The notes under the pieces were generated by a model. The model was not told the origin of the DNA. It ran no database searches and was given only the letters and a program-made list of their open reading frames with translations. Shown piece by piece: positions 709 to 54,664 of a DNA stretch of 64,000 bases (its first letter is position 1; every line of letters starts with the position of its first letter). A program made the position numbers and the translations under genes. The stretch is taken from the IMG/VR virus record IMGVR_UViG_3300042885_001472; one strand, written 5' to 3'. The DNA is from a virus. Its lineage: Duplodnaviria; Caudoviricetes.

Positions 709-1437
709 ATGGCGGGAATAGTAAGAGAAAACATTGATAGGTGGTACGACCTTAATTTGGATGTGGATAATAGAACATTGTTTATGGGATCAGTAGGTTC
801 TGATAGTGAGGGTTCTGAAACCGGAGTGGATAACTTTATGGCTGAATACTTCATCAAGGGTATTCACGTATTGGAATCAAAGAATGATAAACCCATCACC
901 ATCATTATGAATAATCCTGGGGGTGACTGGTATCACGGAATGGCCATCTATGATTCGATCAATACATCCAAGTGTCATTGTACCATTAAGGTATATGGTC
1001 ACGCGATGTCAATGGGATCAATAATCTTACAGGCCGCGGATAAAAGAATAATGTTACCCAGTTCAAGGTTCATGATCCACTATGGTTATGATGGGAAGTA
1101 TGGTCACGCCAAGATGGTGGAGAAGTGGGCGGAGGAATGTAAAAGACTTAACCATAGTATGGAAAACATATACCTGGATAAACTAATGAAGAAGGAACTG
1201 GAACAAGGTATACCTTATATGGTTAATACATTTCAATCCATAATGAATAAACAAAAGGAATTTGATTACCCCACCAATAAGATCGGGGGAGTTAAGTATA
1301 CATTCTCCAGGAAGAATGATATTAGGAGAGAAGAATATAGAACCATACTAAAAGAAATGTTAAACTTTGATACCATACTCTCACCGGAAGAAACTATCTC
1401 ATTGGGATTCGCTGATGAAATATATCTACCCCTATAA
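709..1437 (+). CDS. clpP: ClpP-like protease (S14 family)
   Basis: INNPGG-like motif (MNNPGGDW), catalytic Ser context AMSMGSIIL, His motif RFMIH, C-terminal LSPEETISLGFADEI. Confidence 0.9.
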   Translation: MAGIVRENIDRWYDLNLDVDNRTLFMGSVGSDSEGSETGVDNFMAEYFIKGIHVLESKNDKPITIIMNNPGGDWYHGMAIYDSINTSKCHCTIKVYGHAMSMGSIILQAADKRIMLPSSRFMIHYGYDGKYGHAKMVEKWAEECKRLNHSMENIYLDKLMKKELEQGIPYMVNTFQSIMNKQKEFDYPTNKIGGVKYTFSRKNDIRREEYRTILKEMLNFDTILSPEETISLGFADEIYLPL

Positions 1438-16583: not shown

Positions 16584-18074
16584 ATGGGTAAAGTAAAAGT
16601 TAAAATAACAGAATCTCAAATGAATTATTTATTTGAGAATAGTAGAATTGATTATTTAAAAAATCAATTTGGTGTAATAAGTAATACGGAATTTGAAGAA
16701 CTTTCAAAAGCTGAAAGAACAAAAGGAAGGGGTAGAAAACCAAAAGACGTAACACCTTCAGATGTTGAAGGTACTGAGACACCAAAAGAAAAGAATTATA
16801 CATTAACTCCAATTAAAACACCAGAAGGTGGGTTAATCGCTTTAATCTTAACGGATGAGAAGGGTAAAAGTAAAGTTAGAATTTCAGAAGAAACTTTTAA
16901 TAATATAGTTAACGCTGATCCAACAAATAATAAAATTTATGTTCAATGGTTATTAAAAATTTTAATTGAGTTCATCAAACATAAAGATTTTGAAGAAGCG
17001 GCCAGATTTGTTGATGAAGATTTACCACAATTAAGTCAAACATTAGTGGTTTTTGATGAAGTCAAAAATCTTAATAAGTTTAAAACTTACGCGGCAAATG
17101 AACCTGGATTACCTAGTAACCCTTCAAATATTTTAAGTTATACTTCAATAACACAACTTTATTTGGCTATTGAACCTTATATTGAAAAATCTGATGCTAG
17201 TGATTTAGAAAAAGCGTTAAATAAATTTATTAAATTAAAGGAAGCTAAAATTGTTTATGAAGATAGTAAATGGTTAGTTTATGAACCATTAACAAGAGAA
17301 GCTAACTGTGCTTTACCAAATCCTGGTTTAGTTAAATTTTGTACTGCTAACCCTGGAAATAGTTACTTTCAAAGATACACCTCAGAAGGTGGTAACTTAG
17401 GTCCTGGTGGAGAAAAATCAAGAATTTACGATATTATAAATAAAAAAGTGTTGACTGGTGAAAGTGGAGAAGTTTATCAATTCCATTTTGAAAGTGAACA
17501 ATGGAAGGACGCTAGTAATGGACCTAATATAAATCTTGTAAATTTTTTTAGTGCTAATCCAGGATTAGGTCAATTTTTTAGTGACATCTTAAAAGACTTA
17601 GCTAAAAGACTTAACGTTAATGACTTAGAAAGAAATAAATATTTAAGAATTTTATCACAAATTGGTGAAATTGATAATATTTTAGAATATTTTGATGTTG
17701 ATTCTGAATCAATAGATCTTAAAAGTTATAGACTTAAAAATTTATCTTCTGATATTAGTAATTTTAAAAATTTATACTCTTTATCACTTAATAATGCTGG
17801 TTTAAAATCATTCCCAAATGAGATAACTAAACTTAGTAATTTAGCGATATTATTTGCACCAAATAATAATATTAAAGAACTACCTAAAGATTTTGGGGAT
17901 TTAAAAGAGTTACACGTACTTAATCTTGAAGGTAACCCACTTAAAGAATTGCCGGAATCTATTTCTAAATTGAATGGTAATTTCTTAAAAATTAAACTTC
18001 CTAAAGAGATGTCTGAGGAGGCTAAAAGTAGAGCCACAAAATTATTATCAAAAACGACAATTACTTGGGTATAA
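16584..18074 (+). CDS. leucine-rich repeat protein with a KITESQ leader
   Basis: C-terminal LRRs (LYSLSLNNAGLKSFP, LHVLNLEGNPLKELP); central FCTA..YQFHFESEQ domain. Confidence 0.8.
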   Translation: MGKVKVKITESQMNYLFENSRIDYLKNQFGVISNTEFEELSKAERTKGRGRKPKDVTPSDVEGTETPKEKNYTLTPIKTPEGGLIALILTDEKGKSKVRISEETFNNIVNADPTNNKIYVQWLLKILIEFIKHKDFEEAARFVDEDLPQLSQTLVVFDEVKNLNKFKTYAANEPGLPSNPSNILSYTSITQLYLAIEPYIEKSDASDLEKALNKFIKLKEAKIVYEDSKWLVYEPLTREANCALPNPGLVKFCTANPGNSYFQRYTSEGGNLGPGGEKSRIYDIINKKVLTGESGEVYQFHFESEQWKDASNGPNINLVNFFSANPGLGQFFSDILKDLAKRLNVNDLERNKYLRILSQIGEIDNILEYFDVDSESIDLKSYRLKNLSSDISNFKNLYSLSLNNAGLKSFPNEITKLSNLAILFAPNNNIKELPKDFGDLKELHVLNLEGNPLKELPESISKLNGNFLKIKLPKEMSEEAKSRATKLLSKTTITWV

Positions 18075-18162
18075 ATAATTTTAGATAAAGATTAACTTTT
18101 CATTTATCAACCATATTTATAGTTATAATACTAGTATAACAATTTAATAAAAAAACTAAAAA

Positions 18163-18306
18163 ATGGGTAAAAAAATTAGATTAACTGAATCAGAATTAAT
18201 CAATCTTCTTGAAAGAATCGTAACAGAACATAAAAAAGAAGAAAAGATGAATAAAATTAATGAAAGTAGAAGAGAAAAACTTCAAAATCGTAGAAGATTA
18301 AAATAA
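18163..18306 (+). CDS. 47-aa protein that is mostly leader peptide plus a basic tail
   Basis: Manual translation MGKKIRLTESELINLLERIVTEHKKEEKMNKINESRREKLQNRRRLK; ATATTTAT at 18113-18120. Confidence 0.7.
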   Translation: MGKKIRLTESELINLLERIVTEHKKEEKMNKINESRREKLQNRRRLK

Positions 18307-18334
18307 AAAAAGGGGATTTAATCCCCTTTTTTTT
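18305..18334. terminator. bidirectional intrinsic terminator
   Basis: AAAAAAGGGGA-TTTAA-TCCCCTTTTTTT between convergent genes. Confidence 0.85.
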
Positions 18335-18336
18335 TG

Positions 18337-19596
18337 TTACTTACCTATTTTTATTACAATCTTATCTTTAACCTTATCAAATGTTATTTTAATAACAGTA
18401 TTTTCTTTATCTTCATTCCTTAAAATCTCTTCTGAAATAGGATCTTCAATAAACTTTTGAATAGCTCTATTTAAAGGTCTAGCCCCAAATTTCTCATCAT
18501 ATCCTTCTTTACCTAAATATTCTTTAACTGAAGAATTAATTTTTAACGTATAACCAATTTCTTTACTACGTTTTTCTAGTTTTTTAAGTTCAATTTCCAC
18601 AATTTTATGAATATCTTCTTGTCTAAGTGAATTAAAGATAATGATATCATCTAACCTATTAATAAACTCTGGCGCGAATTTCTTTTTTAACTCCTTATCA
18701 ATAATTGATTTTTTTTCTTCCTCAATAACCACACTTTTACTTTGTGTTGAGAATCCAATACCAGTACCAAAATCTTCTAAATGTCTAACACCAATATTAG
18801 ATGTCATAATGATCAAACAATTTTTAAAATTAATTTTTCTACCTAAACCATCAGTCATTTGACCATCATCTAACATTTGTAATAAAATGTTAAAGGTATC
18901 TGGATGAGCTTTTTCAATTTCATCAAAAAGGATAACACTATATGGTTTTCTTCTAACCTTTTCAGTTAATTGTCCACCATCTTCATGTCCCACATATCCC
19001 GGAGGGGCTCCGACTAATCTTGATATCGCGTGTTTCTCCATATATTCACTCATATCAATTCTAATTAAAGAATCTTCTGAATCAAACATATATTCAGCCA
19101 ATAATTTCGCTAAATAAGTGTTGTGTGATAAAATACCATTAGTATAATATCTACGATTAGAACCTTCTTTTAATTCAAGGTCATACATTACTTCTTCATA
19201 ACCTAAATTGGTTAATTGTGTAACCATTGAATTTAGAGGTTCACCATTATCATTATATTGTGTTATAATTATATCACCTAATTTTAAATCTTTAACAAAA
19301 ACTTCATCAAAATTAATTGGATTAACTTCATTGTGTTTAAACACAATATGATTATCAGCACATTTAAGCTCTTTTCCATCACTTAATTTAAGATGATATA
19401 CTTCATAGGGTATTGTTTTATGTAAAGCTTCTATGTCAACAAAACCATCATCAGTTAATACTTCGTAATCATTAATTTTGGTTGTTTTAGTAATCTTTTT
19501 TAAAGATTCTAATTCATGTTTATCAAATAATAAAACATTATCTAATTTCTCAAGTCTTTTTTGTATTTCCTCTACCCTACTCATTTTATTTTCCAT
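18337..19596 (-). CDS. clpC: ClpC fragment 3: IntC of split intein 2 fused to NBD2 from the Walker A Thr onward
   Basis: ..YYTNGILSHN|TYLAKLLAE..RIDMSEYMEKH..GAPPGYVG..LFDEIEKAHPD..GIGF..GARPL. Confidence 0.93.
   Translation of the reverse strand: MENKMSRVEEIQKRLEKLDNVLLFDKHELESLKKITKTTKINDYEVLTDDGFVDIEALHKTIPYEVYHLKLSDGKELKCADNHIVFKHNEVNPINFDEVFVKDLKLGDIIITQYNDNGEPLNSMVTQLTNLGYEEVMYDLELKEGSNRRYYTNGILSHNTYLAKLLAEYMFDSEDSLIRIDMSEYMEKHAISRLVGAPPGYVGHEDGGQLTEKVRRKPYSVILFDEIEKAHPDTFNILLQMLDDGQMTDGLGRKINFKNCLIIMTSNIGVRHLEDFGTGIGFSTQSKSVVIEEEKKSIIDKELKKKFAPEFINRLDDIIIFNSLRQEDIHKIVEIELKKLEKRSKEIGYTLKINSSVKEYLGKEGYDEKFGARPLNRAIQKFIEDPISEEILRNEDKENTVIKITFDKVKDKIVIKIGK
19120..19596 (-). mobile_element. 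split intein 2, C-half (159 aa)
   Basis: Block B CADNH; block F VMYDLEL; block G ILSHN followed by Thr+1. Confidence 0.9.
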
Positions 19597-19608
19597 ATTT
19601 TATTTTTA

Positions 19609-19640
19609 CAAATATACTATTTTTCATTTAGAAAAACAAT
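19609..19640 (-). promoter_or_regulatory. Bacteroidota-type promoter for ClpC fragment 3
   Basis: Minus-strand TTG at 19637-19639, 20 nt spacer, TATATTTG at 19609-19616, 12 nt before the ATG. Confidence 0.6.
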
Positions 19641-21098
19641 GCATTTATTTATTATTTCTTGTTTATTATTTTTATAATCATATTCACTAATATGTAATAC
19701 TTGATAACCAGATTCTAATATCATTTTATCTCTTTTTTCTTCTCTTAATGAATTTTCTGGTGTTGACCTATGATAGTAAGTACCATCAAACTCAATAATT
19801 TTTCCCTTAACTAAATCAATAAAATCTGGTAATATTACACCATTTAACAATGATAATCGATATTCATTATTTTTACCACTATCATCAATGTCACCTTTAT
19901 TAAATGTCGCAAAGAATATATTATCGTTTTTAATACTTGGTTCTGTTTCTAATATACCCCAAAATAACTGTTGTGATATTTTACTAAAATTAGTTCTTTT
20001 ATAATTAGTTAACCACTTATTTTGTCTTTCATTAAATCTTTTTAATCCGTCTTTTTCACCATATTTCTGGAGACAAATTTCTAAACTAAATGTTGTTTGT
20101 CTTTCAGTTACTTTTTCTTTAGATTGTTGATACGTGAATCCTCTATTAACCCAATAACTTATATTAGATGGTAATAACCTACTTTCATAATCAATATGTT
20201 TTAAAGCATTTAATTGATTGTTTACTACCATAATTTTAGCATCTTCTTCAGAGTATCCTTTATCCACCCAAAACTTAACCTGGGATGGTGTTTGACATAT
20301 TTTATTAATCTCTTCTTCAGAATAACCCAATTTTTGTAAATTATCTTTAGAAACTACAAACCTATCTTTAACCATCATAGAATTTTTACTTTGTATTTTT
20401 GAAATATTACTTTTAGCTTCTTCTTCAGAGTAACCTTTACTAACCCAACTATCAACACATAATCTATTAGACTTGACTATAACATCACTCAATTCTTTTA
20501 GTTTAACTTCAGCTATGTCTTTAGGTAGATACGCATTATATAAATTAGATTTAGAATATCCTTTAGTTTCACAAAATTTATTTGAACACCCAGTAATTTT
20601 ATAATAAAATAAATCTGATATATTTTTTATATTCTTTTTAGTTAATATTAAGTCTTCACCACAAATATTACATTTTGGGCGTCTGTTAGATATAAATTCA
20701 CCACCTTTAAATATTATTTTAATACTTTCATTAAATTCAATTTTATTTTTTTCATTAAGTTTGGTTTTTACACCAATATTAGACCTTTCTTTAGTTATGT
20801 TTGAAATCTTGTTTTTACCATATTCTTTAGACCAACCGCGTTCTAACCAAAAATCAAGTGTTAATAGATTAGATTTTTTAAACCCAAACTTACTCGGTAA
20901 CCATCTATTAAATCTAACCCATTTTATAAGACCATCTTGTGTCAACATATCTTGATAAATTAAATTTATTTTTTCAGTTATTAATTGACTTTCAAAATTA
21001 ATTTTATTGTTAATATTGACCAAATATTCTGTGAACTCATTAGATGTTTTAAAAACTTCTTTAACTTCTTGCCTTTTTCTATCTTTTAAAAATTGCAT
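19617..21098 (-). CDS. free-standing homing endonuclease, Vsr/DUF559-like C-terminal nuclease
   Basis: LPDF..KIIEFDGTYYH..KRD..GYQVLHISE; N-terminal W..kGySeeea repeats; lies between IntN2 and IntC2. Confidence 0.8.
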   Translation of the reverse strand: MQFLKDRKRQEVKEVFKTSNEFTEYLVNINNKINFESQLITEKINLIYQDMLTQDGLIKWVRFNRWLPSKFGFKKSNLLTLDFWLERGWSKEYGKNKISNITKERSNIGVKTKLNEKNKIEFNESIKIIFKGGEFISNRRPKCNICGEDLILTKKNIKNISDLFYYKITGCSNKFCETKGYSKSNLYNAYLPKDIAEVKLKELSDVIVKSNRLCVDSWVSKGYSEEEAKSNISKIQSKNSMMVKDRFVVSKDNLQKLGYSEEEINKICQTPSQVKFWVDKGYSEEDAKIMVVNNQLNALKHIDYESRLLPSNISYWVNRGFTYQQSKEKVTERQTTFSLEICLQKYGEKDGLKRFNERQNKWLTNYKRTNFSKISQQLFWGILETEPSIKNDNIFFATFNKGDIDDSGKNNEYRLSLLNGVILPDFIDLVKGKIIEFDGTYYHRSTPENSLREEKRDKMILESGYQVLHISEYDYKNNKQEIINKCIVFLNEK

Positions 21099-21183
21099 AT
21101 TTATTATGTTTAATAATAAATATCACGAAGTTTTGAAAAAGACCTATTTGTTGGAAAATATTTTTAGGGTGAAGTGGGATGAG

Positions 21184-21282
21184 TTAGTGTTTTATCCTAT
21201 CTATTAATTCATTAATATCAATTTTTTCAACTAAATTAGTACTTTTATTTCTTATAACTATCTGAGTATGAGATGTAAAACA
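21184..21282 (-). mobile_element. split intein 2, N-half (32 aa)
   Basis: Block A CFTSHTQIVIR directly after the Walker A Lys, then a stop codon. Confidence 0.88.
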
Positions 21283-22662
21283 TTTACCAACTCCTGTTGG
21301 ACCAAGGAAGATGAAGCTTCCTATAGGCCTTTTTGGGTTCTTAATACCCACCCTATTCCTTCTAAGAGCTTTCGCAATTTTCTCTACCGCTTCGTTTTGA
21401 CCGATAACTTTATCACCCAATTCTTTTCCCATATCTAAAAGTCTTAACCCCTCTTTAGTTGAAACTTTATTAAGTGGGATACCGGTCATCATAGAAACAA
21501 CTTCCGTTATTGATGATTCATCAACAAGACTTCTTTTATGGTTTAATTGTACCTCCCATAATTTTTTAGTTTTTTCTAAATCTTCATTTAGGATTCTTTC
21601 CTGATCTCTCAGTAAAGCGGCCTTTTCAAATTCTTGTGTCTTAACAACTGTGAGTTTTTTCTCCTTTAATTCAACAAGTTTCTTTTCTAATTCAACAATT
21701 TCTTTTGGTGGTTTAACAACAACTTGAGCTCTAGCTCCAGCTTCATCCAAAATATCAATCGCTTTATCTGGGAATTCTCGATCTGTAATATACCTTTCAG
21801 CTAACTTAACACATTCTTCAATAGCTTCTTTAGAATACTCAACTTTATGGTAATCTTCATACTTACCCTTAATATTATTTAAAATTGTTATAGTATCTTC
21901 TGGGGATGTTGGGTTAACCATAACTTGTTGAAATCTTCTAGTTAAAGCCCCATCTTTTTCAATGTTCTCTCTAAATTCATCTAATGTAGTCGCCCCAATA
22001 ATTTGGAGATCTCCTCTAGCCATCGCTGGTTTAAAAATATTTGACGCGTCAAGTGATCCGGAACTATTTCCAGCTCCAACAATTGTATGTAATTCATCAA
22101 TGAATAAAATTACATCTCTATTACCAACTAATTCGTCAAGAATACTTTTCATTCGTTCTTCAAACTGACCACGATATTTTGTACCGGCCACTAATGAAGA
22201 AAGATCTAAAGAAACAATTCTTTTACCTATTAATGTTCTTGGGGCTTTACCCTCTTTAATTTTTAACGCTAAACCCTCAATAATTGATGTATTGTGTGAT
22301 AAAATACCATTAGTGTAGTAACGTCTATTTGAATTTTCTGTTAATTCAAAGTCATACATAACTTCTTCATAACGTAAATCATTGATTTCAGAAATAACGC
22401 TAACAATAATTTGACCATTACCATCATCGGTTAAAATTTCATCACCAATATTTAAATCCTTAACAAAAACTTCCACAAAATCTTTATAGAAAACAATATG
22501 GTTATCAGCACATTTTAATTCTTTACCATCAGATAATTTAAGATGATACACTTGATATGGAATTGTTTTATGTAACTTTTCCAATTTTTTAAACCCATTA
22601 TCAGTTAAGATACTGAAGTTACTCATATCAAATGATTTTGTAAATTTTTTTAATTCTTTCAT
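21184..22662 (-). CDS. clpC: ClpC fragment 2: IntC1 + NBD1/M-domain/start of NBD2 + IntN2
   Basis: ILSHN|TSIIEG..AGTKYRGQFEER..FIDELH..GATT..RRFQ..FPDKAID..UVR-like M domain..GPTGVGK|CFTSHT. Confidence 0.93.
   Translation of the reverse strand: MKELKKFTKSFDMSNFSILTDNGFKKLEKLHKTIPYQVYHLKLSDGKELKCADNHIVFYKDFVEVFVKDLNIGDEILTDDGNGQIIVSVISEINDLRYEEVMYDFELTENSNRRYYTNGILSHNTSIIEGLALKIKEGKAPRTLIGKRIVSLDLSSLVAGTKYRGQFEERMKSILDELVGNRDVILFIDELHTIVGAGNSSGSLDASNIFKPAMARGDLQIIGATTLDEFRENIEKDGALTRRFQQVMVNPTSPEDTITILNNIKGKYEDYHKVEYSKEAIEECVKLAERYITDREFPDKAIDILDEAGARAQVVVKPPKEIVELEKKLVELKEKKLTVVKTQEFEKAALLRDQERILNEDLEKTKKLWEVQLNHKRSLVDESSITEVVSMMTGIPLNKVSTKEGLRLLDMGKELGDKVIGQNEAVEKIAKALRRNRVGIKNPKRPIGSFIFLGPTGVGKCFTSHTQIVIRNKSTNLVEKIDINELIDRIKH
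22291..22662 (-). mobile_element. split intein 1, C-half (124 aa)
   Basis: CADNH, VMYDFEL, ILSHN followed by Thr+1. Confidence 0.9.
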
Positions 22663-22719
22663 ATATTTTATTTTTTAGATTCGTTTTTTCCCTTTTATTA
22701 TAAATGGTAACGTATTTAA

Positions 22720-22821
22720 TTAGGGATTAGATAATGTTTTCAATAATTCTTCAATAGTAGTTTTTATCACTTCACCTGTTAAATCATTTCTCATAACAAC
22801 CTCAGTATCAGAACAAATACA
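22720..22821 (-). mobile_element. split intein 1, N-half (33 aa)
   Basis: Block [12 protein letters not shown] after the Walker A Lys, then a stop codon. Confidence 0.88.
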
Positions 22822-23544
22822 CTTACCAACACCCGGGTCGCCTATCAAAACGGGATTATTTTTCTTACGTCTACTCAAAATTTGAGCAACTCTTTGAATC
22901 TCATCATCTCTACCAATAACTGGATCAATTTTACCTTCTTCAGCTGATACCGTAATATCTTTAGAAAAATTATCTAAAATTGGTGTTTTACTACTAGTTT
23001 TAGTGTACTTCTTTTTTTCTGGTTCAATTGGACTACTTTCTTGTTCGTCACCTTCATAACTCGCCATAATACTTAATTCTTTAATTTTTTGTTTAAAACT
23101 ATTATAATCAACCTCAAAATCATTTAATAAAGAAGCTATGTCAGATTTAGAATTTAACATAGACAAAATCAAATGATTTAAATCAATAAACTCTGACTTT
23201 AGACTTACCGCCTCATTATCTGAATTATTAATTATTTCTGTACTATCCTTATTTAGGGGTAATATGTTATACTTTTTTTGTACTCTAGGTACGATATTTT
23301 GTTGACAATTAAATTGTAACTTAACTATCAATTTTTTAGTATCAACATTCATACTCACTAATGTTTTAACCCCCATATTATTATTATCTCTAAGTATTGA
23401 TAATAAGATATGTTCAGGTCTCACATTCACATCATTAAATTCTTTCGCGGTATCAAACGAAGAGTTCATAATTTGTTTCACTTTAGGTATTACTCTTTTC
23501 ATATTGATTAAGTTTAGTATTTTTTTTCTTAAAAGTCCAATCAT
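22720..23544 (-). CDS. clpC: ClpC fragment 1: Clp N-domain + start of NBD1 + IntN1
   Basis: [35 protein letters not shown]|CICSDT; real start may be the ATG at 23502. Confidence 0.93.
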
Positions 23545-23629
23545 TATATAAATATCTTCATAAAATTGTTACTTTTTTTAAAATGAAAAAAAATATGTTA
23601 AAAAACTTTTTTTATTAGAAAATAAGTTA

Positions 23630-32122: not shown

Positions 32123-32328
32123 ACAAACTAAATAAAGAACTAATAACACTAACAAAAAGTGATGTAATGTTTCTTATAGCAAGTGCTATGGGTTATGGAT
32201 GGAACGCGTCTGGTGGATATCGAGATGGAGAATTTGAAAAAATTCAAAAACGAAAAGAATTAGAAAAAGAAAATTTACTTAAATGGGCAACAACTATAAG
32301 TCAAAACAAATATGAACAACCTAGATAA
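32119..32328 (+). CDS. hypothetical protein with an MNKLNK start
   Basis: ORF track. Confidence 0.6.
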   Translation: MNKLNKELITLTKSDVMFLIASAMGYGWNASGGYRDGEFEKIQKRKELEKENLLKWATTISQNKYEQPR

Positions 32329-33523
32329 AAGTTACACAGACCTACTCCAAGACATCTTAGATAATGGAGTAACAAAAGATGACCGTACAGGTACAGGAAC
32401 AATCTCAGTATTCGGAAGACAAATACGTCATAAAATGAGTGATGGGTTTCCATTGATTACTACGAAACGAATTCCTTTTAGATTAGTGGTTACTGAACTT
32501 TTATGGTTCTTACGTGGTGATACTTCAATAGAGTATCTTTTAAAGAATGACTGCAATATATGGACAGGAGACGCTTATAAGAATTATATATTTAATTCAG
32601 AGTGGTTTCCAATTTCAAGTGTAACTGGTGGATTTATTGGAACTAAATCTGATAGTGATGAAATAATGACTCAAGATTTATTCATCAACAAAATCAAAAC
32701 AGATGATGAGTTTGCTAAGAAGTGGGGCGATTTAGGTCCTGTGTATGGTAAGCAATGGAGAAGTTGGGGTCCTATGATGAGAGATATTATTCCGTTAGAG
32801 ACTGGAGGATACGTCTATAAAGGACCAATAGACCAAATAGCAAACCTAATCAACGACCTTAAAACAAATCCTGATTCAAGACGCTTAATGGTTAACGCTT
32901 GGAATGTTGGCGAATTAGACCAAATGGTTCTTCCACCTTGTCATTATGGGTTCCAGCTTTACACAAGAGAGTTAACTGAACGTGAAAGAAATTCACATTC
33001 AATAGCATGTGATGTTAGAGGACAATTTCGTACAATGTTTTCCGAAGAAGAATTAAATGAATTTAATGTACCCAAAAGAGTAATCTCCCTAATGTTTAAT
33101 ATGAGAAGTACCGATGTTGGACTTGGCCTTGGATTCAATTTGGCCTCATACGGATTATTATTGATGATGATTGCTAAACAAGTTAATATGGTTCCTAACG
33201 AACTGATTTATAATGGAGGTGATGTACATTTATATTCAAATCATATTGAACAAGCAAAGGAACAGATTGGTAGAGAAATGAATCACGATGAAAAAGTTAA
33301 ATACGCTCGTTCATTGTATGGGGATAAAGATTGGTGGAATATCAATGATGATAGAGTTTTAGAGATATTACATTCTAACAAAAGAACAAGAGAACCATAT
33401 CCGTTACCAACAGTAAAATTATCTGATAGAGTTGTGAATGATATTTCAGAATATACTTTGGATGATATTGTTTTAGAAAATTATCAATCACATCCATCCA
33501 TAAAAATGCCGTTATCTAATTAA
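32312..33523 (+). CDS. thyA: thymidylate synthase ThyA with insertions
   Basis: DRTGTGT, ELLWFLRG, LGPVYGKQWR, PDSRR, LPPCH, RSTDVGLGLGFN, GDVHLYSNH. Confidence 0.97.
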   Translation: MNNLDKSYTDLLQDILDNGVTKDDRTGTGTISVFGRQIRHKMSDGFPLITTKRIPFRLVVTELLWFLRGDTSIEYLLKNDCNIWTGDAYKNYIFNSEWFPISSVTGGFIGTKSDSDEIMTQDLFINKIKTDDEFAKKWGDLGPVYGKQWRSWGPMMRDIIPLETGGYVYKGPIDQIANLINDLKTNPDSRRLMVNAWNVGELDQMVLPPCHYGFQLYTRELTERERNSHSIACDVRGQFRTMFSEEELNEFNVPKRVISLMFNMRSTDVGLGLGFNLASYGLLLMMIAKQVNMVPNELIYNGGDVHLYSNHIEQAKEQIGREMNHDEKVKYARSLYGDKDWWNINDDRVLEILHSNKRTREPYPLPTVKLSDRVVNDISEYTLDDIVLENYQSHPSIKMPLSN

Positions 33524-45198: not shown

Positions 45199-48100
45199 AT
45201 GGCTGATAATAAAAATTTAACGGTTTGGCAGAAACTGGGGGTTCTATTTGGACCTGATAAAAAACCTATAATAGGACCAACCAAATCATATTCAATTGAT
45301 TCAAAAGAACTATTAAGAACAAAGTCTAAAGAAGAGTTTAGTACTGAGAAATTACAAAAACAACAAAATTTATATTTAAATAATCAATGGGAGAAGGTTG
45401 ATAATACATTGTACCAACAAGCGATGTTTTATGAAACAACTAGAATTTCATCTTATACCGATTTTGAGTCTATGGAATTTTTCCCAGAGATTTCAGCGGC
45501 TTTAGATATTCTAATGGAAGAATCTACAACACAAGATAGTAAGGGTAATATTTTACAAATCCATTCCGAATCTGATAGGGTTAAAAAAGTTTTAACTGAT
45601 TTATTTCATAATAGATTAGATATCCATACAACATTACCAATGTGGACAAGGAACGTTTGTAAATATGGCGATAATTTCATATATTTAGATATTGATGATG
45701 AAAATGGTATTACTAATTGTAAACAATTACCCAATATTGAGATTGAAAGACATGAAGGTGATGTTTATAATTCAATAAATGGTGTCATTGATATTAACAG
45801 AAATAAGAAAAAGGGTGATGATCTAAAATTTGTTTGGAAAAACAGAGAGTTTGAATTTAATTCTTGGCAAATAGGTCATTTTAGATTACTTGGTGATGAT
45901 AGAAGATTACCATATGGTACTTCAGTATTAGAAAAAGCTAGAAGGATTTATAAACAATTAATGTTATCTGAAGATGCTATGTTAATTTATAGAATTACCA
46001 GAGCTCCAGAACGAAGAATATTTAAAATATTCGTGGGTAATATTGATGACAAAGATGTTGAACCATATGTACAACAAATTGCGAATAAATTTAAAAGGTC
46101 ACCGGTAGTTGATCCTAAGACTGGACAAATTGATTTAAGATATAATCAAATGGCCAATGATCAGGATTTTTTCATCCCGGTTAGAGATCAAGCAGCGACA
46201 AATCCAATTGAAACATTAGCTGGTGCGTGTATATCGTTAGATAGTAGAATTCCATTATTGGATGGTAGAACACTTACATTAAATGAAATTATTAATGAAT
46301 GGGATAATGGTAATAGAAATTTATGGGTATACTCTTGTGATCCCAAAACTGGTGAATTTACCCCTGGAATAATTACTTGGGCTGGTGTTACTAGAAAAAA
46401 TACTGAAGTAATGAAAATTACATTGGATAACGGTGAAGAGATTACCGCAACGCCTGATCATAAATTTGTTCACAGAACTAATGGCTTTGTGGCGGCTAAT
46501 GAATTAAATGTTGGTGATTCGTTAATGCCTTTTTATAGTAAAAAATCAATTTATTATAAACATTATGATTATCAACAAATATTTGATAATAAAACTCAAA
46601 AATGGGTTTGGGTACATAAAGAAGTTACTAAGTTCCATAAAAATAATTTAGTGAATGAGACAACATTTTTAGAGGAATATAAAGACCAAAATCATTCTAC
46701 TATACATCATATTAATTTTAATAGGTTTGACAATTCACCAACTAATTTAACATTTATGAATAGTAAAGACCACTTTAAATTACATTGTAAAAATCAACAA
46801 ATAGGGAGTAAAGCTTTTTCCGAGAAGTATAAAAATAACCCTAATTTCGCTAAAAGAGTAAGAAAACATTTAAATGAGTGTAATAAAATATTTCACGATA
46901 AAAGAAATTCTGATCCAGAATATAAAGAATTCATTAGAAGTAAACAAAAAGAATCTATTAATAAATTTTTTAATGAATTATCGGTAGAAGAATTAAAAAA
47001 ATGGTGTGAAAGGATTAATAACCCAATAACTAAAGCTAAAACCACAAAAAAATTATTAAAATGGTGTGAGAACCCAGACAATTTAAAATTAAAAGGTCAG
47101 ATAATTAGTACCGTTAAATCAACCCCAGAAGCTAAAGAAAAAATGAGTAAGATGTCTAAAAGTATTTGGGTGAGAGAAGGATATAAAGAGTCAGTATTTA
47201 GTAAAAAACAAACTTTAATTTTCAATGATAAACTTTACAATATGTTTATTAATGAATTTGAAAAACATTTACGTTCAGATTTAACTTTACAAGTTTTAAA
47301 TAGAAGTTCTAACTTTATGTTTGAGTTTAATTCTATTAATAAAGATATTAGGAGTTCATTAACTAATTTAAATACATTCACCCATAATCATTTAGAAAAA
47401 ATGATTAAAGAAAAAGGATTTAAAAATTTTAGGGAGTGGAAAAAAGAGGAAATTATTAAAAGAGGTTTCATCAATTTACGTCAATGGCAATATTATCTCG
47501 ATAAAGAGAATGGTAAATATGGTAGTAAAGAAAGGGGTAAGTCAATTAATCAATTCTATAATCATAAAATTGTAAAAATAGAATATCTAGAACAGAGAAT
47601 TGATACGGGCACTATCACAGTAGATGGTAATGAAATGTATCATAATCATCACACATTCGCCTTAGAATCAGGTATTTATATCAAAAATTCTAATTTGTCT
47701 GAAATTGCAGATATTGAATATCTTCAAAAGAAATTATTCGCAGCACTTAGAGTTCCTAAACCATTTTTAGGTTTTGAATCAGCTGTAGGTGATGGTAAAA
47801 ATTTAGCATTACAAGACATACGTTTCACAAGAACTGTTAATAGAATTCAACAATCTATGTTACAAGAATTAAATAAAATCGCTATTATTCATTTATTCAT
47901 ATTGGGGTTAGATGAAGAATTAAGTAATTTTACTTTAACTTTAAATAACCCTTCTACACAAGCAGAAATGTTACGCACAGAACAAATGCAGGTGAAGATG
48001 CAATTATATAAAGATTCTGTTTCTGATGCCGGTAATGGGTTTGCTGCGATGTCTATGACTAGAGCTAAGAAAGAAATATTAAACTTTTCTAATGATGAAA

Positions 48101-48609
48101 TACGTCTTGATATTGAACAACAAAGACTTGAAAAAGCAGCCGCAGCTGAATTAGCTAATACATCCGCGGTAATTAAAAAGACTGGTTTATTTGATAAGAT
48201 AGATAACATTTATGGTGATACTACTGGTGAAGCTGTCACTGAAGGTGGTGGTGATGTAACACCTCCAGCTGGTGGGCCTGAAATGGGTGGTGAAGAAATG
48301 GGTGGTGCACCTCCAGAACCAACAACACCAGAAACAACAGAACCAACACCGCCTACAATGGAGTCTGGGGTTAAAAATTTAGATAAGTTATTATTAGAAA
48401 GAAAAGAATTTTTAATGAAATCGTATGATAGTAAACAAAAAAAACATAAGGCTAATTATATTAACAAATTGATTGAAAGTATTGAAATACGAGAAGAATA
48501 CAAGGTAAATATTAATGAGAGTAAAAATAATGTTTCGGATAGTAACAATAGACACAATAATGATATAACAAATATGGTTGATAATATTAATAATTTATTA
48601 AATAAATAA
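45199..48609 (+). CDS. gp20: portal protein (T4 gp20-like) containing a cis intein
   Basis: MLSEDAMLIYRITRAPERRIFKI..DFFIPVR..ETLAGA|intein|SNLSEIADIEY..ALRVPK. Confidence 0.93.
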   Translation: MADNKNLTVWQKLGVLFGPDKKPIIGPTKSYSIDSKELLRTKSKEEFSTEKLQKQQNLYLNNQWEKVDNTLYQQAMFYETTRISSYTDFESMEFFPEISAALDILMEESTTQDSKGNILQIHSESDRVKKVLTDLFHNRLDIHTTLPMWTRNVCKYGDNFIYLDIDDENGITNCKQLPNIEIERHEGDVYNSINGVIDINRNKKKGDDLKFVWKNREFEFNSWQIGHFRLLGDDRRLPYGTSVLEKARRIYKQLMLSEDAMLIYRITRAPERRIFKIFVGNIDDKDVEPYVQQIANKFKRSPVVDPKTGQIDLRYNQMANDQDFFIPVRDQAATNPIETLAGACISLDSRIPLLDGRTLTLNEIINEWDNGNRNLWVYSCDPKTGEFTPGIITWAGVTRKNTEVMKITLDNGEEITATPDHKFVHRTNGFVAANELNVGDSLMPFYSKKSIYYKHYDYQQIFDNKTQKWVWVHKEVTKFHKNNLVNETTFLEEYKDQNHSTIHHINFNRFDNSPTNLTFMNSKDHFKLHCKNQQIGSKAFSEKYKNNPNFAKRVRKHLNECNKIFHDKRNSDPEYKEFIRSKQKESINKFFNELSVEELKKWCERINNPITKAKTTKKLLKWCENPDNLKLKGQIISTVKSTPEAKEKMSKMSKSIWVREGYKESVFSKKQTLIFNDKLYNMFINEFEKHLRSDLTLQVLNRSSNFMFEFNSINKDIRSSLTNLNTFTHNHLEKMIKEKGFKNFREWKKEEIIKRGFINLRQWQYYLDKENGKYGSKERGKSINQFYNHKIVKIEYLEQRIDTGTITVDGNEMYHNHHTFALESGIYIKNSNLSEIADIEYLQKKLFAALRVPKPFLGFESAVGDGKNLALQDIRFTRTVNRIQQSMLQELNKIAIIHLFILGLDEELSNFTLTLNNPSTQAEMLRTEQMQVKMQLYKDSVSDAGNGFAAMSMTRAKKEILNFSNDEIRLDIEQQRLEKAAAAELANTSAVIKKTGLFDKIDNIYGDTTGEAVTEGGGDVTPPAGGPEMGGEEMGGAPPEPTTPETTEPTPPTMESGVKNLDKLLLERKEFLMKSYDSKQKKHKANYINKLIESIEIREEYKVNINESKNNVSDSNNRHNNDITNMVDNINNLLNK
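46228..47688 (+). mobile_element. cis intein (487 aa) with an HNH endonuclease
   Basis: Starts CISLDSRI; TPDHKF block B; IHHINFNRFDNSPTNL HNH; ends GIYIKN followed by Ser+1. Confidence 0.92.
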
Positions 48610-52849: not shown

Positions 52850-54664
52850 ATGGGACATCTTTTAAATTCAGGCGAGGTTGGTAACATAGGGTTAGAACAC
52901 CTTAAACAAATCCGCGTAAAAACAATCAATAAATGGGACGAATTAGGCTTCTTAAAAGGTCTTAAAGGTCACGTTAGAGAAAACATCGCTCAGTTATATG
53001 AGAATCAAGCTTCTCACTTATTAAATGAGTCTACAACTGCAGGTGACGCATCAGGTTCTTTTGAAACTGTTGTATTTCCAATCGTAAGACGTGTATTCTC
53101 TAAATTATTAGCAAATGATATCGTTTCAGTTCAAGCGATGAATATGCCAATCGGTAAATTATTCTTCTTCGTACCAGTTACGTCTGACAGAAATAACTCT
53201 GGTGAATGGCAAGACATCCCTACAAGCTCAACGGCTCAAGGTGCTACATCTAAAAACCCGATCATTAGTGGTCAATTACCTGAGTGTGTAACAGGATTTA
53301 ACTGTTCAGTTGCAACTTTCTCAGTATGTGCTAAGTCATTATATGACCGATTTTATAATGATGGTTTATTCGATCATTCTAAAGGTACAGCAACAATTAA
53401 CATTGCAACTGGTACTCCGGTAGTATGGACAGCTTGTACAACTGGTAGTGAATTTACTCCTGGTACTACAGCAACTGCTTTTGATAGTTCAGTTAGAAAA
53501 CAAATTCTTGAAGTTGAAGGTTTCAACGGTGCTAATGCTGGAAGAATGGGTAACAATTCACCTGGTTCTGATTCTCCTAACGGAAACGAAATGGATTCTG
53601 AAGAATTTTTAGCTTCTTTATCTGTAGTAGCAGCTACTGCTATTTATGATAATGATGGTAAAATGGTTCTTAACTCTGGTGATGAAGTTCCATTCCGTGT
53701 GGTAACTCAAAAATACGGTAAAGGTATCGTAGCATATAACGACATTTGTGATGCTGTAGGTAAATTATACATTGAGGTTGATTTAACTCACCCTGCTTGT
53801 GTATCTTGTGGTACAAACACAATTGATGGTTATACTGGTGCTGAATCTGGTTGGACAGCGTCTACTGATTCATTCGTAGTTGGATGGAGACAATACAGTT
53901 CATTAGAACTTTCTACTGAAATGGGTGAGGTTTCTTTCCGTTTAGATGAGGTTGTAGTTTCTGTAACTGAAAGAAAGTTAAGAGCTAGCTGGTCTCCAGA
54001 ATTAGCACAAGACGTTTCAGCGTTCCATAACATTGATGCTGAAGCTGAATTAACAGCTTTATTATCTGAGCAAGTTGCTGCTGAAATTGATCGTGAGATT
54101 TTACGTGATTTACGTAAAGGTGCTGCTTGGCAATTACGTTGGGATTATAATGGTTGGAAACGTGTTGCAACTGTTGCGACTCCATATACTCAAAAAGAAT
54201 GGAATCAAACATTAATCACTAAATTAAATCAATTATCTGCTCAGATTCACAAATCTACTTTAAGAGGTGGTGCTAACTTTATCGTTGTATCTTCTGAAGT
54301 ATCTGCGATTTTTGATGATTTAGAATATTTCCACGTATCTAATGCTAATCCTGAACAAGATCAGTATAACATGGGTATTGAGAGAATTGGTAGTTTAGGT
54401 GGTCGTTACACAGTGTATCGTGATCCTTATGCTCCAGCTAACTCAATCATCATTGGTCACAAAGGTAAATCATTGTTAGACACTGGTTATATCTACGCAC
54501 CATATGTACCATTACAATTAACTCCAACGATGTATAATCCATTTAACTTCGCGCCAGTGAAGGGTATTATGACTCGTTACGCTAAGAAAATGGTAAATAA
54601 CCGTTTCTACGGACATGTTAGAGTTGACGGTATCCAAACATTTGATACAAGAGAATTACGATAG
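52850..54664 (+). CDS. gp23: major capsid protein (T4 gp23-like)
   Basis: VFPIVRRVF, VQAMNMPIG, RKLRASWSPELAQD, EIDREI, YAPYVPL, GIMTRYA. Confidence 0.97.
   Translation: MGHLLNSGEVGNIGLEHLKQIRVKTINKWDELGFLKGLKGHVRENIAQLYENQASHLLNESTTAGDASGSFETVVFPIVRRVFSKLLANDIVSVQAMNMPIGKLFFFVPVTSDRNNSGEWQDIPTSSTAQGATSKNPIISGQLPECVTGFNCSVATFSVCAKSLYDRFYNDGLFDHSKGTATINIATGTPVVWTACTTGSEFTPGTTATAFDSSVRKQILEVEGFNGANAGRMGNNSPGSDSPNGNEMDSEEFLASLSVVAATAIYDNDGKMVLNSGDEVPFRVVTQKYGKGIVAYNDICDAVGKLYIEVDLTHPACVSCGTNTIDGYTGAESGWTASTDSFVVGWRQYSSLELSTEMGEVSFRLDEVVVSVTERKLRASWSPELAQDVSAFHNIDAEAELTALLSEQVAAEIDREILRDLRKGAAWQLRWDYNGWKRVATVATPYTQKEWNQTLITKLNQLSAQIHKSTLRGGANFIVVSSEVSAIFDDLEYFHVSNANPEQDQYNMGIERIGSLGGRYTVYRDPYAPANSIIIGHKGKSLLDTGYIYAPYVPLQLTPTMYNPFNFAPVKGIMTRYAKKMVNNRFYGHVRVDGIQTFDTRELR

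Follow-up and report, generated by a model that had tools for sequence, protein, structure and literature searches.

Two predicted split inteins at the Walker A motifs of a phage clpC gene: a candidate for natural three-piece protein trans-splicing

The 64,000-nucleotide stretch analyzed here (the window; IMG/VR record IMGVR_UViG_3300042885_001472) is part of a T4-like phage genome of ~27% G+C, and its gene for the AAA+ unfoldase ClpC is broken into three fragments (F1, F2 and F3). We assign both interruptions to atypically split inteins, each having a short N-terminal half (IntN) and a long C-terminal half (IntC), one at the GK|T of each Walker A motif (the bar marks the splice point). We propose, at a probability of about 0.85, that a phage clpC gene was invaded at both Walker A motifs by paralogous split inteins and is rejoined by trans-splicing, with a homing endonuclease and a pairing module as parts of the system. 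This three-piece clpC is one instance of a widespread arrangement that is undescribed as far as we could find.

Identity and constraint of the rejoined ClpC

The clpC locus consists of four consecutive minus-strand open reading frames (ORFs), read from 23544 to 18337: F1, F2, an ORF of 493 amino acids (aa) and F3 (Table 1). A preliminary description of this DNA had spoken of three ORFs, which is right for the ClpC pieces and omits the 493-aa ORF from the count, although its text mentions an intervening endonuclease as in fractured genes; such a gene lies in the second break and none in the first. The fragment ends and IntC lengths it gave (124 and 159 aa, each closing at SHN|T) agree to the residue with the ORF listing. 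Joined, the exteins (241+336+260) give 837 aa, within the 820-840 aa that had been estimated, and Pfam and NCBIfam confirm the domain order: Clp_N in F1; AAA, AAA_lid_9 and UVR in F2; AAA_2 and ClpB_D2-small in F3. The NCBIfam ClpB/ClpA models continue across the successive ORFs, and Walker B, both pore loops, sensor 2 and the IGF loop (GTGIGFS, in F3) are all readable in the sequence.

Removal of the inteins restores the junctions GDPGVGK-TSIIEGLA and GPTGVGK-TYLAKLLA, identical to those of intein-free alleles; the earlier description, too, had both GKT motifs form only on joining. The joined product is 97.1-97.8% identical to three intein-free proteins from metagenomes (P0006, P0007 and P0008), and the alignment is gap-free through both junctions. 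When an intein-free allele was compared with the PDB, ClpC of S. aureus and B. subtilis matched best and in one stretch (5-809, E 2e-230), whereas ClpB matched in two. The domain order, the IGF loop and this full-length ClpC match support the original assignment of the host gene to ClpC, a class I Hsp100/Clp AAA+ unfoldase. The window also carries a gene for ClpP, which is likely the partner of the IGF-loop ClpC; with the two together, a full ClpCP protease may be encoded by this phage.

Two intact clpC genes (L081 and L082) share their neighborhood with the window, including a KTSC gene, a 47-aa ORF and leucine-rich repeat proteins. The window differs from L081 by 159 synonymous and 24 non-synonymous codons (ratio of non-synonymous to synonymous rates, dN/dS, 0.036) and from L082 by 69 and 19 (0.076), while the two intact genes differ from each other by 154 and 27 (0.042). 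By extein, dN/dS against L081 is 0.044 for extein 1, 0.031 for extein 2 and 0.039 for extein 3. Because dN/dS is equal in fractured and intact alleles, the fractured clpC is under the same constraint as the intact ones.

The fractured clpC is neither a pseudogene nor an assembly error, since identical contigs occur in independent lake metagenomes and its dN/dS is that of intact alleles. The exact F2 protein is recorded on 13 contigs. In all, 24 runs from 24 studies (freshwater and lake metagenomes, 2016-2024) contain the stretch or part of it, and 21 of them contain at least half of the sampled words. Among the best-matching runs, eight may be the source of the window DNA; X9, a run unlikely to be that source, comes from a different sample and study, and its contigs span every stop/start junction with zero differences (18000-19075, 19057-21146 and 21124-23108). 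The same stop and restart positions recur in dozens of diverged homologues. Misassembly of the stops after each IntN, which the preliminary description had named as a possible refutation, is thus itself refuted by the X9 contigs, the 13 F2 contigs and the diverged relatives. Contig joints that skip the inteins (e.g. 19086 to 21283) are as would be expected if the same lakes held intein-free relatives; with sides of 21-38 nt at 90% likeness, they are suggestive only.

The interruptions as atypically split inteins

Both interruptions contain the residues on which splicing would depend: C1, (CA)DNH, YD(F/L)EL, SHN and T+1. The catalytic residues of IntC are invariant in 16 homologues, across which 30 columns are invariant in total, and Cys1 is present in all IntN sequences aligned. 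A local IntC profile matches IntC1 at E 4e-62 and IntC2 at E 2.7e-62. The two IntC sequences are 60% identical to each other and have identical junction residues (K|C...HN|T).

A contiguous (cis) relative links the halves to a known fold. This mini-intein (L009:7009-7527, from IMG/VR) is 173 aa long, sits at the second Walker A motif (site 2), is collinear with IntN2 plus IntC2 and is 74% identical to IntC2. It reaches 31.4 bits in the Pfam intein model PF14890, and by sequence the PDB entries that match it best are the consensus atypical intein CatC (6DSL, E 3e-5), gp41-1 and VidaL. It is about 30% identical to CatC, and both finish in ...YYTNGI(V/L)SHN and have (C/S)xDNH as block B. An AlphaFold2 (AF2) model of L009:6994-7542 has a predicted local distance difference test score (pLDDT) of 82 and a predicted template-modeling score (pTM) of 0.73; its top 50 Foldseek matches in the PDB are all inteins or bacterial intein-like (BIL) domains, with template-modeling (TM) scores up to 0.73/0.84. 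The HINT fold is thus predicted from the model of the cis relative.

On that model, the split point maps to an insert of helix and disordered residues that follows strands 12-17 and 23-27, which is the atypical N-proximal site. The ~35-aa extension of IntC2 is predicted from the same model to be part helical and part disordered. We call a split atypical where IntN and IntC lie on separate ORFs, the break follows the first two strands and IntN is about 15-40 aa long, and both inteins of the window have this layout. IntN homologues from the GVGK|T position of the first Walker A motif (site 1a) form 36 clusters of 30-42 aa, one being 68 aa. Anatomy, homology and the predicted fold of the cis relative together support the initial reading of two atypically split inteins (short IntN, long IntC) at the GK|T of each Walker A motif.

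Endonuclease and homing sites

The 493-aa ORF in the second break encodes five W..KGYSxEE-type repeats followed by a C-terminal domain with the motif IEFDGxYYH...RD, conserved without exception among 6 homologues. All six (6/6) also give hits to Pfam DUF559 and MTES_1575, each below its curated cut-off. In a profile search of the PDB, 3r3p came first (E 0.27). An AF2 model (pLDDT 79) likewise returned 3r3p, the catalytic domain of I-Bth0305I, as the first Foldseek match (probability 0.98, E 0.024), with Vsr (1cw0) at a probability of 0.95. None of the Pfam, PDB profile or Foldseek matches is significant individually, and searches of PHROGs and a single-sequence search of the PDB with this protein returned nothing. 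Like the Vsr-like EDxHD endonucleases of the I-Bth0305I group (3R3P), which are the top match by both profile and fold, the protein is free-standing and lies within an intervening element; unlike them, it has N-terminal repeats and its nearest Pfam families are DUF559/MTES_1575, and the matches are weak. Homologues occupy the same breaks in L003, L007, L008, L012 and L034. From the modeled fold, we regard the 493-aa protein as a candidate Vsr/DUF559-like free-standing homing endonuclease.

The repeats have no match in Pfam or PHROGs. A [YF]W..KG[YF]SxEE repeat region is common to endonucleases of related loci (L003-L068) that carry three different nuclease domains (DUF559-like; a true Vsr-like GDDYHGNP...WDSEY; and DFYLP...IEY), which suggests a modular DNA-binding array with swappable nucleases. 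An 11-bp A/U hairpin (21099-21130, minus strand) ends one base before the endonuclease start codon. With a minimum free energy of -7 kcal/mol and a z of -2.06 it is weak evidence, and it may act as a translational brake on the endonuclease.

The empty sites of the intact genes bear on how one kind of element could occupy both P-loops. In L081 (8001-10472) the two empty sites keep an identical 18-nt core, CAGGTGTTGGTAAAACTT, which would explain the presence of one element family in both. The other intein-free gene, L082 (4019-6532), carries substitutions right at the two homing sites, with GK|S in place of GK|T at site 1 and GKSGVGK in place of GPTGVGK at site 2, plus synonymous changes. These substitutions may reflect resistance to the endonuclease.

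Pairing of the two inteins

Since F2 carries an IntC at one end and an IntN at the other, correct assembly would require each half to choose its own partner. The clearest trace of such a choice lies in residue 13 of IntN and the residue that follows GFx in IntC, which are complementary in all 18 of the 18 cognate pairs verified: Asp-Lys at site 1a in six loci, Asn-Asn at site 1a in two (L083 and L084), and Lys-Asp at site 2 in ten. Unpaired samples agree. Residue 13 of IntN is Asp in 32/36 sequences at site 1a vs Lys in 38/40 at site 2, and the residue after GFx is Lys in 26/33 vs Asp in 100/104. Two further positions differ by site: another residue (Lys in 25/33 at site 1a vs Ala in 102/104 at site 2) and block F (YD-F-E in 36/40 vs YD-L-E in 105/106). 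In TerL and other hosts, most contiguous members of the family combine Lys13 with Asp, so the site-1a lineage appears to be the reversed one.

The rest of the IntC core tells a different story. Over the first ~35 core residues identity is 0.58 across sites, 0.70 within site 1 and 0.91 within site 2, whereas over the remainder it is 0.64, 0.62 and 0.77, with the best cross-site pairs at 0.88. This pattern implies that the remainder has been exchanged between sites while the N-proximal module stayed site-specific. A quick tree places one site-2 clade (approximate likelihood ratio test, SH-aLRT, 99) among the site-1 inteins, with some site-1 sequences inside the clade; given the mosaic identities, we read it as recombination and not as clean transfers. 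Asp/Glu-type (that is, site-2-type) inteins do occur at site 1 in alleles whose site 2 is intact (P0037, P0051 and P0066). In 16-17 of the ~19 double-split alleles, IntC1 (Lys) and IntN2 (Lys13), the two halves carried by F2, are like-charged.

Covariation and mosaicism together suggest selection for orthogonality of the two inteins. The fuller hypothesis, to which we give even odds on these sequence comparisons, is one of natural tandem trans-splicing in which inteins of ~60% identity are kept orthogonal by the covarying IntN13/GFx module, a module selected despite gene conversion elsewhere in the intein.

Proposed mechanism and alternatives

We propose that two paralogous, Walker A-targeting split inteins invaded clpC between the Lys and Thr of each GKT. 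F1, F2, the endonuclease gene and F3 would probably be transcribed as one operon and the three ClpC pieces translated. IntN1 (of F1) would then dock on IntC1 (of F2), and IntN2 (of F2) on IntC2 (of F3), each pair completing a HINT fold. The right order of joining is probably ensured by IntN together with the N-terminal ~35 residues of the IntC core, a small module whose most evident trait is a charge pair reversed between the sites (site 1, Asp13/Lys; site 2, Lys13/Asp). Splicing would follow the class-1 route, from a thioester at Cys1 through transfer to the Thr+1 hydroxyl and cyclization of the terminal Asn to the O-to-N shift. Intein removal would restore both GKT motifs and yield the 837-aa ClpC, which would hexamerize and dock through its IGF loop on the phage ClpP.

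Neither ATPase site would exist before splicing. Losing an intein imprecisely would therefore kill the gene, and we hypothesize that this is why the inteins persist. The Vsr/DUF559-like endonuclease of the second break would be the mobility engine, homing into intein-free alleles during co-infection, while at the first break an endonuclease would have been lost or never present.

Several points weigh against this proposal. In block B, Ala (CADNH) stands where the canonical TxxH motif has Thr. The halves in the window do not reach the curated intein models: in Pfam Intein_splicing (PF14890) they score 24.4 and 23.4 bits (cut-off 35.8), and in TIGR01443 14.2 and 13.5 bits (cut-off 15.6). The intein hidden Markov model search that the preliminary description named as a check thus finds both inteins in Pfam and TIGR01443, at scores below the curated cut-offs; we attribute the low scores of the split halves to models built on typical inteins. 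Pairwise dN/dS takes in history older than the fracture, and no RNA run among the metagenome and run matches contains the clpC locus. With regard to pairing, two double-split alleles (P0045 and P0048) have a site-2-like Asp in IntC1, and an exchange of IntN fragments has been reported between two related atypical split inteins, GOS-TerL and AceL-TerL (PMC11766414).

The last two points lead to the alternative that we take most seriously, although we still think it unlikely. Cross-reaction is plausible because the inteins are 60% identical, with the same junction residues, and because related atypical IntN fragments are reportedly interchangeable (PMC11766414). Combinatorial splicing would then give, besides or instead of full ClpC, a fusion of exteins 1 and 3 (a 501-aa single-ring ClpC lacking the body of the first nucleotide-binding domain, NBD1, and the M domain) and/or extein 2 cyclized head to tail; F2 has the IntC-extein-IntN layout of engineered cyclization, and cross-spliced products would have a coherent hybrid P-loop because both breaks fall at the same Walker A position. 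The complementary covariation in 18/18 cognate pairs and the like charges of IntC1 and IntN2 argue against such products, as does the retention of a site-specific module despite recombination elsewhere in the intein. Moreover, site-2-type inteins at site 1 go with an intact site 2, barring the two alleles without charge reversal, and all three exteins are equally constrained.

Two further readings deny splicing altogether. The intein halves might serve as association domains only, with no peptide bond formed, and there is a precedent in the fragmented phage NrdA joined by interaction domains (PMC3045599). We consider this very improbable: a HINT domain of ~150-190 aa would interrupt each Walker A loop between Lys and Thr and so preclude the binding of nucleotide, and all splicing residues are invariant across homologues that are 56-73% identical. 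Nor is it at all credible that the stops are recent inactivating mutations or assembly faults in a dead gene. Nothing beyond the existence of the stop codons speaks for decay, whereas dN/dS (0.04-0.08) is that of intact alleles, each piece has its own ATG, the architecture is repeated in many diverged clusters, and identical contigs come from independent samples. Trans-splicing of the three pieces is the reading we retain.

A widespread intein family

A family profile built from 16 IntC cores was searched against 1.84 billion representative proteins (clusters at 50% identity). It matched 1,297 representatives at E <= 1e-3, of which 632 pass E <= 1e-10. The C-terminal splice motif could be located in 145 of the best 150 matches, which were inspected; the domain stands at the protein N-terminus, the layout of a split IntC, in 120 of these 145, and position +1 is taken by Thr in 101 and by Ser in 42. 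Their C-exteins continue a Walker A motif and, roughly sorted by their first residues, are TerL-like (84), DnaB/gp41-like (14), Clp/Hsp100-like (13), SbcC-like (4) and ClpX-like (2), among others. Judged from these matches, this is a large intein family, mostly split and targeting Walker A GK|S/T.

An allelic series of phage clpC was drawn from 80 IMG/VR loci and the protein hits, and it includes all three kinds of allele that the preliminary description had proposed to look for: cis, single-split and intein-free. Most clpC genes of this set are intein-free. At site 1a (GVGK|T), split alleles occur without an endonuclease (L001, L002 and L004) and with one (L003 and L008). At site 2 they occur with an endonuclease (L007, L012, L015, L023, L027 and L034), with a remnant of one (L059) and without (L071), and L009 is the cis form. 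Double-split clpC genes are also among the phage alleles. Counted as clusters at 90% identity among the top 120 hits of each search, there are at least 23 double-split middle fragments (IntC N-terminal, IntN C-terminal), at least 106 fragments of the F3 type, and 36 of the F1 type with a site-1a IntN.

Two other kinds of intein were seen at or near the first P-loop. In L011 (2763-3854), L012, L014 and L045, the GVGK|T of the first nucleotide-binding domain holds an unrelated contiguous LAGLIDADG intein of 364 aa that begins with Ala1 (AQPLD...) and ends in THN|T; the Ala1 suggests a non-class-1 mechanism. A third type is inserted three residues upstream (GEPG|C...SHN|[C/T]GKT), has an IntN of 21-24 aa and exists in split and cis forms. 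It is carried by L005, L006, L007, L038, L040, L047-L049, L051, L053, L054, L066 and L068, with the cis form at L061:3956-4408, and often comes with a different, PD-(D/E)xK-like free-standing endonuclease. L007 combines this third type with the site-2 split intein. In a related phage contig, a gene for IS605 OrfB/TnpB (Cas12f-like; L084:1-460) lies ~1.2 kb upstream of the split clpC.

Relation to known systems

Taken singly, the elements of this arrangement are already known: insertion at a P-loop, the atypical split, the fractured gene with a Vsr-like endonuclease, and purifying selection on exteins. GK|T has been called the 'classic' P-loop insertion point (PMC5050341), and the mycobacteriophage TerL1-a intein (Kelley et al. 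2016, PMC5050341) is like those described here in being inserted at GK|T with the Walker A Thr as +1 nucleophile. That paper makes no mention of split inteins, whereas the inteins here are split and occupy both P-loops of a two-ring AAA+ protein.

The closest characterized inteins are AceL-TerL, GOS-TerL and Cat (Thiel et al. 2014, Stevens et al. 2017, via PMC11766414). They have an IntN of 25-37 aa and an IntC of 104-115 aa, with Cys1 in AceL-TerL and Cat and Ser1 listed for GOS-TerL; the short IntN, the long IntC and an origin in phage genes from environmental metagenomes are common to them and the clpC inteins. Most family members found here also sit in TerL, as inteins of the AceL-TerL/Cat type do. 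The differences lie in the host, which here is ClpC and not the terminase; in the +1 residue, which is the Walker A Thr here and Cys there; and in the ~35-aa extension of IntC2, the presence of two paralogues in one gene and an identity of ~30% to characterized members. The characterized TerL inteins, which are reported with Cys at +1, probably occupy another TerL site than the GK|S/T members, to judge by that residue. Of such inteins, the accessible literature characterizes only these few atypically split TerL members (PMC11766414).

The fractured genes of Dassa et al. (2009, PMC2677866) resemble the clpC locus in having a free-standing endonuclease between split-intein halves, as at site 2, and one of them, gp41-7, lacks it, as does site 1 with its 57-nt spacer. 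They are also like it in exteins under purifying selection and in their occurrence mostly in phages, and the candidate endonuclease of site 2 would fit their Vsr-like homing endonucleases. No Clp or chaperone gene is mentioned among them, whereas here a proteostasis ATPase carries two breaks, both atypical N-proximal splits. Engineered tandem trans-splicing (PMC12707363, PMC7090010) likewise joins three segments by two split inteins, has a middle piece of the form IntC-extein-IntN and needs orthogonality; here the arrangement is natural and the inteins are 60%-identical paralogues, whereas there they are unrelated ones picked for orthogonality.

In a literature search, neither inteins of Clp ATPases nor a natural case of three-piece trans-splicing came up in any paper; since most subscription journals were outside its scope, this absence is no proof. 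The preliminary description had judged two split inteins in one AAA+ chaperone to be unusual and perhaps undescribed. Its second term agrees with our search; its first holds for the literature only, as the double-split clusters counted above make the arrangement common in sequence databases. Nor did we find descriptions of a Clp/Hsp100 host, of a natural assembly from three pieces by two split inteins in one gene, of how large and how Walker A-specific the split-intein family is, or of the apparent natural orthogonality code.

Locus and neighboring features

Each ClpC piece has its own ATG, including each IntC. The break at site 1 (IntN, spacer and IntC) measures 515, 531 or 535 nt in relatives, and neither the frame nor the length of the spacer is conserved. 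A fusion of IntN1 and IntC1 by in-frame read-through was considered and ruled out because the spacer holds a second in-frame stop and its frame is unconserved in relatives.

Table 1. Coordinates in the window of the clpC locus, its parts and associated features
Feature	Coordinates	Strand	Description
ClpP gene	709-1437	+	PF00574, E 3.6e-28
F1	22720-23544	-	274 aa; C-terminal end GDPGVGK|C + 32 aa + stop (33-aa IntN)
F2	21184-22662	-	492 aa; N-terminal 124 aa to GILSHN|T; C-terminal end GPTGVGK|C + 31 aa + stop (32-aa IntN)
Endonuclease ORF (candidate)	19617-21098	-	493 aa; in second break
F3	18337-19596	-	419 aa; N-terminal 159 aa to GILSHN|T
Extein 1	22822-23544	-	241 aa; Clp_N, linker, NBD1 first strand and P-loop, to GDPGVGK
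IntN1	22720-22821	-	33 aa; Cys1; residue 13 Asp; TAA stop
Spacer IntN1/IntC1	22663-22719	-	57 nt; no endonuclease gene; second in-frame stop
IntC1	22291-22662	-	124 aa; block B CADNH, block F YDFEL, block G SHN; then Thr+1 (Walker A Thr)
Extein 2	21283-22290	-	336 aa; NBD1 remainder (Walker B, KYRG pore loop), lid, UVR-like M domain, NBD2 start to GPTGVGK
IntN2	21184-21282	-	32 aa; Cys1; residue 13 Lys; stop
Spacer before endonuclease gene	21099-21183	-	85 nt; 11-bp A/U hairpin
IntC2	19120-19596	-	159 aa (155 from second ATG); ~35-aa extension, then HINT core GFVDIEALH, CADNH, YDLEL, SHN; then Thr+1
Extein 3	18337-19119	-	260 aa; NBD2 remainder (Walker B, GYVG pore loop, IGF loop, sensor-2 GAR), D2-small domain, stop
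Terminator-like hairpin	18305-18333	.	13 bp; bidirectional intrinsic type; closes the clpC operon (putative)
Sigma-70-like promoter candidate, 5' of F1	23543-23572	-	GTAACA-18-TATAAT

The promoter candidate 5' of F1 is the top score on its strand (10/12) and is weak evidence, for a scan of the window gave 42 sites vs 39.9 expected, with no enrichment over shuffles; distinct promoter classes for the ClpC pieces are unsupported for the same reason. The one further terminator-like site listed by the scan has a stem of only 5 bp and lies inside the F2 coding sequence (21287-21300). The start context shared by F2 and F3, AAATAAAATATG, has 12 matches in the window vs 6.6 expected, and 5/100 shuffles reach 12, which is no clear enrichment.

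Elsewhere the window encodes gp23, the gp20 portal, TerL and RNA ligase. The gp20 portal gene (45199-48609, plus strand, 1,136 aa) contains a large contiguous intein that starts with CISLDS after ...TLAGA near residue 352 (Pfam Intein_splicing, E 1.2e-8); it belongs to another family than the ClpC inteins, because the ClpC IntC profile does not match gp20. Relatives of the gp23 major capsid protein (52850-54664, plus strand, 604 aa) were matched in two pieces covering only ~54% of its length, and the Pfam model of ThyA (32312-33523, plus strand, 403 aa) was matched in two stretches, with no intein motif seen. Both gp23 and ThyA seem to carry insertions.

In the GenBank phage collection, a DNA search found no close relative, only short ClpC-like matches, and a protein search gave extein matches only. 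Outside phages, the proteins closest to the ClpC N-fragment come from Bacteroidota (Saprospiraceae, Chitinophagales and Bacteroidia), the genes start without a Shine-Dalgarno sequence, and among cultured phages the closest capsids include those of Flavobacterium phages. The host of this phage may be one of the freshwater Bacteroidota.

Significance

Split inteins are core tools for protein ligation, and those with a short IntN are prized since that half can be synthesized. A short-IntN split intein cited in a 2025 review was called 'rare' (PMC11766414). The clpC inteins belong to a family that counts some 1,300 clusters (50% identity), mostly split and with Thr or Ser at +1 instead of Cys. If the proposal is true, orthogonal short-IntN split inteins with a non-Cys +1 residue would already have been solved by nature many times.

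The clpC locus would possibly be the first natural case of three-piece trans-splicing. With its middle fragment and two close paralogues, it amounts to a natural orthogonality experiment, in which the charge swap and the mosaic point to few, transplantable residues. The allelic series, with empty, cis and split alleles, split alleles with an endonuclease, and alleles occupied at both sites, should be useful for understanding how inteins become split and how they spread between Walker A sites.

For phage biology, the locus, in which an essential ATPase would be put together from three pieces, would widen the concept of the fractured gene from enzymes of DNA metabolism to a chaperone/protease system. 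More speculatively, tying ClpCP activity to two splicing events could constitute a post-translational checkpoint.

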